Origin: a virus
Taxonomy: Duplodnaviria; Heunggongvirae; Uroviricota; Caudoviricetes
Virus record (IMG/VR): IMGVR_UViG_2526164666_000018
Location: 1 to 8,653 of that record
Length of the DNA stretch: 8,653 bases
Direction: 5' to 3' (one strand)
A program made the position numbers and the translations under genes. Positions 5,240-7,140 of the stretch are shown in pieces. The notes under the pieces are model-generated. The model was given only the letters and a program-made list of their open reading frames with translations, had not been told where the DNA came from and did not search any database. Position 1 is the stretch's first letter. Each line of letters begins with the position of its first letter.

Positions 5240-7140
5240 TATTCTGCGGCGTGATGTACGCGCCGGGCTGCGAGCCCTGTTCAGGCCGGAGCCACAGACT
5301 GCCGTTGAATGGGCGGATGCCAGTTACTATCTCCCGAAAGAATCCGCATACCAGGAAGGGCGCTGGGAAACACTACCCTTTCAGCGGGCTATCATGAATG
5401 CGATGGGCAGCGACTACATCCGCGAGGTGAATGTGGTGAAGTCTGCCCGTGTTGGTTATTCAAAAATGCTGCTGGGTGTTTATGCTTACTTCATAGAGCA
5501 TAAGCAGCGTAACACCCTTATCTGGTTGCCGACGGATGGTGATGCCGAGAACTTTATGAAAACCCACGTCGAGCCTACCATCCGCGATATTCCGTCGCTG
5601 CTGTCTCTGGCCCCGTGGTATGGCAAAAAGCACCGGGATAACACGCTCACTATGAAGCGTTTCACCAATGGTCGTGGCTTCTGGTGCCTGGGCGGTAAAG
5701 CGGCAAAAAACTACCGTGAAAAGTCGGTTGATGTGGCGGGTTATGATGAACTTGCTGCCTTTGATGAGGATATTGAACAGGAAGGCTCTCCGACGTTCCT
5801 GGGCGATAAGCGTATTGAAGGCTCGGTCTGGCCAAAGTCCATCCGTGGCTCCACGCCCAAAGTGAGAGGCACCTGCCAGATTGAGCGTGCAGCCAGTGAA
5901 TCCCCGCATTTTATGCGTTTTCATGTTGCCTGCCCGCACTGCGGGGAGGAGCAGTATCTTAAATTTGGCGACAAAGAGACGCCGTTTGGCCTCAAATGGA
6001 CGCCGGATGACCCCTCCAGCGTGTTTTATCTCTGCGAGCATAATGCCTGCGTCATCCGCCAGCAGGAGCTGGACTTTACTGATGCCCGTTATATCTGCGA
6101 AAAGACCGGGATCTGGACCCGTGATGGCATTCTCTGGTTTTCGTCATCCGGTGAAGAGATTGAACCGCCTGACAGTGTGACCTTTCACATCTGGACGGCG
6201 TACAGCCCGTTCACCACCTGGGTGCAGATTGTCAAAGACTGGATGAAGACGAAAGGGGATACGGGAAAACGTAAAACCTTCGTGAACACCACGCTCGGTG
6301 AGACGTGGGAAGCGAAAATCGGCGAACGTCCGGATGCTGAAGTGATGGCAGAGCGGAAAGAGTATTATTCAGCGCCCGTTCCTGATCGTGTGGCTTACCT
6401 GACCGCCGGTATCGACTCCCAGCTGGACCGCTACGAAATGCGCGTATGGGGATGGGGGCCGGGTGAGGAAAGCTGGCTGATTGACCGGCAGATTATTATG
6501 GGCCGCCACGACGATGAACAGACGCTGCTGCGTGTGGATGAGGCCATCAATAAAACCTATACCCGCCGGAATGGTGCAGAAATGTCGGTATCCCGTATCT
6601 GCTGGGATACTGGCGGGATTGACCCGACCATTGTGTATGAACGCTCGAAAAAACATGGGCTGTTCCGGGTGATCCCCATTAAAGGGGCATCCGTCTACGG
6701 AAAGCCGGTGGCCAGCATGCCACGTAAGCGAAACAAAAACGGGGTTTACCTTACCGAAATCGGTACGGATACCGCGAAAGAGCAGATTTATAACCGCTTC
6801 ACACTGACGCCGGAAGGGGATGAACCGCTTCCCGGTGCAGTTCACTTCCCGAATAACCCGGATATTTTTGATCTTACCGAAGCGCAGCAACTGACTGCTG
6901 AAGAGCAGGTCGAAAAATGGGTGGATGGACAGGAAAAAAATACTGTGGGACAGCAAAAAGCGACGCAATGAGGCGCTCGACTGCTTCGTTTATGCGCTGG
7001 CGGCGCTGCGCATCAGTATTTCCCGCTGGCAGCTGGATCTCAGTGCACTGCTGGCGAGCCTGCAGGAAGAGGATGGTGCAGCAACCAACAAGAAAACACT
7101 GGCAGAATACGCCCGTGCCTTATCCGGAGAGGATGAATGA
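5214..7140 (+). pseudogene. A: Terminase large subunit gene A, apparently disrupted by a +1 frameshift near 6929 (or a sequencing error)
   Basis: ORF 5214..6971 (GTG start, 585 aa) is lambda gpA-like throughout (MNISNSQ...EKWVDG) but then ends in 13 unrelated residues. The expected gpA C-terminus ([69 protein letters not shown]) is encoded in the +1 frame at 6925..7140 and ends in the ATGA overlap with W. Lambda gpA is about 641 aa. Confidence 0.75.

Follow-up and report, generated by a model that had tools for sequence, protein, structure and literature searches.

The terminase large subunit gene (gene A) of a lambda-like prophage is disrupted, in the deposited sequence that we analysed, by a single extra adenine at position 6929, and this base is probably a base-calling or consensus error of a draft assembly and not a mutation carried by the bacterium. 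The reading as an error is favoured because the window (the whole stretch of DNA analysed, 8,653 bp) is a short draft contig, the insertion is unique, a second frameshift is present in the neighbouring gene W, and the differences private to this sequence are indels only. The first-pass annotation of this stretch had kept two interpretations side by side, a defective prophage if the lesion is real and an assembly or sequencing error if it is not; our analysis supports that framing and places the weight on the error. In the genome of the bacterium itself, gene A probably forms one continuous ORF of 641 codons and W a normal ORF of 68 codons. The finding is an ordinary one whether the base is an error or real, and neither reading opens a new question.

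Origin and gene content of the contig

An exact-protein look-up with the 585-aa product of gene A as deposited identified the window as the entire contig AIGQ01000047.1 (8,653 bp) of assembly GCA_000250015.2. The accession prefix AIGQ corresponds to Escherichia coli DEC10B, a stx1a-positive strain of serotype O26:H11 (table in PMC4959244), and the draft genome of DEC10B came out in 2012 with those of the DECA collection (PMC3558956). Both ends of the contig cut through genes. A lambda-type late region with the gene order cos, Nu1, A, W, B lies on the plus strand of the window, and no RNA genes were found in the window by Rfam and tRNA scans. The features used in this study are the following, with positions counted from the first letter of the window:

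Start of the window: 3' end of a SASA-family esterase gene
Between the esterase gene and the PerC-family gene: holin, DUF1327 gene, lysozyme and Rz-like lysis genes
Minus strand: YlcI/YnfO-family gene
4508-4519, upstream of gene A: lambda-type cosN, GGGCGGCGACCT
4586-4590, plus strand: T5 run, T6 in the three nearest complete genomes and in O26 11368; third private single-base indel, in the non-coding stretch that separates cosN from Nu1
4694-5239, plus strand: Nu1 (terminase small subunit), intact
5214-6971, plus strand: gene A (terminase large subunit) as deposited; GTG start, 585 aa, made of 572 native and 13 out-of-frame codons before a stop
6925-7140, plus strand: +1-frame ORF of 71 aa with the last 69 native gpA residues (R573-E641), including the prohead-binding C-terminus
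6929, plus strand: extra A, the cause of the +1 frameshift, turning GGCAGG into GGACAGG, with an A7 run (6935-6941) 5 nt downstream of it
7137-7304, plus strand: gene W (head-tail joining protein), frameshifted; 43 native and 12 foreign codons before a stop, 55 aa versus 68
7261-7265, plus strand: A5 run, A6 in all references; 1-base deletion that frameshifts W
7339-8653, plus strand: first 438 codons of gene B (portal), intact; protein identical to the references, running off the contig end

The prophage that matches the window in the nearest complete genome contains Q, genes for a SASA-family esterase and a PerC-family protein, and lysis genes, and it has no stx gene. Only part of the window is matched by Stx1a phages, at 98.1%, and no stx lies between Q and the esterase gene in that nearest complete genome; we therefore rejected the possibility that the window is part of the Stx1a prophage of DEC10B. 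The PerC-family transcriptional regulator gene (104 aa) is located at 3680-3994, between the lysis genes and cos, and every EHEC isolate in the DECA collection has been reported to carry perC1 (PMC3491183). The DUF1327 ORF (183 aa, 1007-1558) is open in the window, and the DNA of this locus is identical in strains 2313 and CFSAN027343, differing only in its annotation; at this place, RefSeq has only a 336-nt 'YdfR family protein' pseudogene, described as incomplete and with its C-terminus missing. The cos site extends over 4503-4553, where GGGCGGCGACCT at 4508-4519 is followed by CGCGGGTTTTCGCTATTTATGAAAATTTTCCGG, a sequence that we take to be the same as that of lambda.

The extra base in gene A

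We aligned gene A with that of lambda (NC_001416) and with the complete genomes of E. coli 2313, O26:H11 11368 and TW08637, and found that it has exactly one base in excess, A6929, as the first-pass annotation had proposed from a D-G-R reading of this place. All the references read GGATGG-CAGG where the window has GGATGGACAGG, and the inserted base stands outside any homopolymer. The lesion is read straight from the letters, so that chance plays no part in it. The deposited frame is gpA-like through ...EKWVDG (codon 572), continues with QEKNTVGQQKATQ and stops at 6969-6971, so that the earlier description of a frame ending at 6971 after 13 unrelated residues is correct. The conserved C-terminus, which had been estimated at about 70 residues and placed in the +1 frame at 6925-7140, lies there and comprises 69 native residues. 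This +1-frame ORF reads MD followed by RKKILWDSKKRRNEALDCF...ARALSGEDE, and the MDR with which its 71-aa product begins exists solely through the insertion of A6929. The ATGA overlap with W that the annotation called normal is indeed found at 7137-7140, but W itself is frameshifted (at 7265), a lesion that the annotation had missed.

At the domain level, the insertion splits the GpA_nuclease profile of Pfam into positions 2-261, found in the 5214-6971 ORF, and positions 258-286, found in the 6925-7140 ORF. The assignments are based on GpA_ATPase (PF05876), with 173.5 bits over a cut-off of 25.6, and GpA_nuclease (PF20454), with 214.2 bits over a cut-off of 22.5. A sequence search of the PDB found no structure related to gpA.

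As deposited, gene A is not a single continuous ORF of about 641 codons, since it stops at codon 585; once A6929 is deleted, an ORF of 641 aa is obtained with 0 amino-acid differences from WP_001027230.1, the protein of strains 2313 and O26:H11 11368. This reference protein is 98% identical to lambda gpA without gaps. The repaired ORF has the same length as the product of lambda gene A (NP_040581, 641 aa), the same 98% identity to it and both the GpA_ATPase and GpA_nuclease domains; as in lambda, its start overlaps the end of Nu1, it finishes in the ATGA overlap with W, and a lambda-type cosN lies upstream. The difference is limited to the deposited form, where the extra A after codon 572 ends the ORF at 585 aa, a base that is absent from lambda and from all the relatives. 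The annotation had named, as evidence that would speak against its frameshift, related functional phages that share this exact sequence within a single continuous ORF. The alignment bears this out in part: related phages and prophages, lambda included, have one continuous ORF and lack the extra base.

Private indels and the search for other carriers

The truncated product of gene W retains positions 1-44 of the 66 of the gpW profile (Pfam), and the addition of one A yields a 68-aa protein identical to WP_000198153.1, which matches lambda gpW (PDB 1HYW) over its full length. The deletion in W (7265) lies 336 bp downstream of the insertion in gene A (6929). We considered and rejected the idea that the insertion in A and the deletion in W compensate each other as a +1/-1 pair, because the frame of gene A already stops at 6969-6971 and the two changes fall in separate genes.

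To count the private differences, the window was compared with its nearest complete genomes (2313, CFSAN027343 and TW08637). The positions at which it differs from all three amount to four indel events and 0 substitutions: the loss of a 6-bp repeat unit at 265, T6 to T5 at 4590, the extra A at 6929, and A6 to A5 at 7265. Each substitution allele of the window also occurs in one or more of the three genomes, and two of the three one-base indels (T6 to T5 and A6 to A5) are homopolymer undercalls. Over the 2.9 kb between 5730 and 8653, only the added A6929 and the missing A7265 set the window apart from the two prophage copies of TW08637. The substitutions present within A and W are all synonymous, and the parts of both genes that are now out of frame show no decay; in the comparison with the nearest finished genomes, no private substitutions, IS element or deletion were found as signs of decay. 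In E. coli, spontaneous substitutions are roughly ten times as frequent as indels, and given this proportion a set of private differences made of indels only is unlikely to come from real divergence. Four private indels with 0 substitutions are the pattern that an indel-prone chemistry leaves, not the usual one of natural divergence, and the excess of indels over substitutions together with the changes in homopolymer length is the spectrum expected of an artefact.

Other observations concern the private indels and the composition of the window. The T5 run at 4586-4590 follows cosN by about 70 nt and precedes Nu1 by about 100 nt, which presumably places it in the cosB/IHF-site region, as judged from the arrangement in lambda. 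In the 3' part of the SASA-family esterase gene, one 6-bp unit of a tandem repeat is lost in frame (260-270), where the references have GCGCTGACGCTGACGG and the window has GCGCTGACGG; this change is private with respect to the three nearest genomes and could be either real or an artefact. The window is also a mosaic: Nu1 and the 5' part of A (4694-5729) have the alleles of 2313 and O26 11368, and 5730-8653 has those of both TW08637 copies. Such a mosaic could be the outcome of natural recombination among co-resident lambdoid prophages or, equally, a chimeric consensus of paralogous copies.

The search for other carriers of the A6929 insertion covered finished genomes, phages, plasmids and metagenomes, all of them from strains other than DEC10B itself. 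A 61-mer centred on the extra base was compared with 5,426 complete E. coli genomes, in which 4,463 homologous places were located; none of these matched it perfectly, the best matches all being of 60/61, and it had no perfect match in 78 phage records or in 44 plasmid records. A 39-mer with the extra base gave 0 matches in GTDB species-representative genomes, IMG/VR and JGI metagenomes; the control 39-mer, without the extra base, had at least 120 matches in IMG/VR viral contigs. The exact-protein index, which spans 153 billion gene positions, records the 585-aa product and the 71-aa product for AIGQ01000047.1 only. Independent sequences of this locus from other strains thus lack the variant, as would be expected of an artefact.

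The truncated W has a different distribution. The 55-aa protein occurs at 0 of 1,284 homologous places in complete RefSeq E. coli genomes, and it was found in other GenBank assemblies, on at least 24 contigs. Among the ten W-truncated contigs listed, most have A, B and C also split into several ORFs, and alignments of the W-truncated contigs with the O26 11368 prophage contain from 2 to 28 gap openings each. The change from A6 to A5 therefore recurs mostly in assemblies that are rich in other indels, which makes the neighbouring private insertion in A suspect as well. In the three W-truncated loci that are about 99.4% identical to the reference, 8 of the 14 one-base indels fall at runs of at least four bases; only these three loci are informative, since the count is noisy for several others that are about 4-5% divergent. 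One carrier of the truncated W, at 2582-4550 of UGDA01000003.1 (GCA_900449325.1; locus L129), is unlike the others in that it resembles a truly degraded prophage: only a 140-aa 3' fragment of A is left, and the portal gene is shortened and fused to tail genes. Based on this locus, the change from A6 to A5 may sometimes be a genuine slippage mutation.

Readings of the extra base and their consequences

The window is a short draft contig from a region that O26-type genomes contain in several near-identical prophage copies, which compete for reads in assembly. Genomes of related strains have as many as five copies of the A-W segment, and this multiplicity invites consensus errors; the likely cause would be an indel-prone platform combined with mixed reads from paralogous prophages, a technical origin that we infer. 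The draft genomes of sister E. coli strains, produced in 2012 by the same laboratory and sequencing centre, were obtained with 454 Titanium and the Celera assembler (PMC3491183), which for DEC10B serves as context only. As in known indel errors of draft assemblies, the private differences of the window are all small indels, and one-base repairs restore the proteins perfectly; what differs is that the insertion in gene A adjoins a homopolymer run rather than falling inside it. Because it lies outside a homopolymer, A6929 is a less typical platform error than the other two one-base indels. We also considered whether the assembler had stacked two codon-3 alleles, GGA and GGC, into GGAC, and rejected this as a general explanation, given that GGA is found in 1 of 3,168 records.

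It is possible, but in our judgement unlikely, that the extra A is real and that one lambda-like, non-Stx prophage of DEC10B acquired this +1 insertion in its gene A very recently, whether or not its W is frameshifted too. The large subunit would then lack its last 69 residues, and the prophage could package its own DNA only with terminase provided in trans by a co-resident lambdoid prophage. The extra base does stand in the deposited consensus and is not in a homopolymer; EHEC prophages are often truly defective, and the O26 11368 copy itself has annotated frameshifts in the minor tail U gene and in a small lysis-region ORF. Moreover, up to five homologous A genes per genome could relax selection on a single copy, and the predicted effect is clear, as the loss of just the last five residues of lambda gpA abolishes prohead binding (PMC4856287). 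Against a real insertion, A6929 is unique among all the homologous loci searched; its neighbour, the frameshift in W, turns up elsewhere mainly in assemblies with many indels and never in a complete RefSeq genome; and the four private indels come with no private substitution in a sequence whose 2.9 kb around both lesions are otherwise identical to finished copies. A pseudogene would be recognised by a disruption shared with relatives or by further decay, and neither was found here: no other carrier was found among the complete genomes and in the protein index, and the repaired proteins are 100% identical to their references. This result lowers the pseudogene reading, with the caveat that a very recent private mutation would look alike, being unique and without later decay. 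The window resembles the defective lambdoid prophages described in EHEC (O157, O26, O103 and O111) in being one of several lambda-like prophages of an O26:H11 EHEC strain, and differs from them in having no IS element, deletion or private substitution.

A programmed or leaky arrangement, in which the base is real and the frame is restored on the A7 run by the loss of one A in transcription or by a +1 ribosomal slip, is very improbable. Its support lies in the geometry of the sequence: GGA CAG GAA AAA AAT minus one A would be read as V D G Q E K I L W D..., in the native frame, yielding a full-length gpA of 641 aa in which R573-K574-K575 are replaced by Q-E-K. Runs of A are known slippage sites, but only low slippage is expected on an A7 run, and slippage there would not rescue the frameshift of W, which is at an A5 run. 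We know of no requirement for two isoforms of gpA. A programmed frameshift would be expected to conserve its arrangement and its slippery site across relatives, and the shifted arrangement is conserved nowhere, every relative having an unshifted single ORF. Equally remote is the combined case in which the extra base is real, A and W were both lost very recently, and slippage on the A7 run would leave a leaky packaging mutant dependent on co-resident prophages.

If the lesion were real, the closest known parallel would be lambda Aam42, whose gpA lacks five residues; its prohead binding is abolished, its phage yield is very low, and the mutation is recessive to wild type (PMC4856287). The product of the window would similarly be without the C-terminal prohead-binding domain, but here 69 residues would be lost and 13 foreign ones gained, against five lost in Aam42, and the cut falls inside the Pfam nuclease profile, at about position 260 of 294. 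Considering that the Aam42 phenotype arises from the loss of five residues, the loss of 69 together with a broken W would block autonomous packaging and head completion. Co-resident lambdoid prophages could complement these defects, and the case would be another ordinary one of EHEC prophage decay, in which a non-Stx prophage becomes dependent on a helper for its mobilisation.

Under the preferred reading, that of a sequencing or consensus error, caution is needed, as the contig taken at face value labels a prophage of an O26:H11 EHEC strain as packaging-defective. The error would also have generated spurious proteins, namely the 585-aa gpA, the 71-aa fragment and the 55-aa W, and all three are already present in the protein index.
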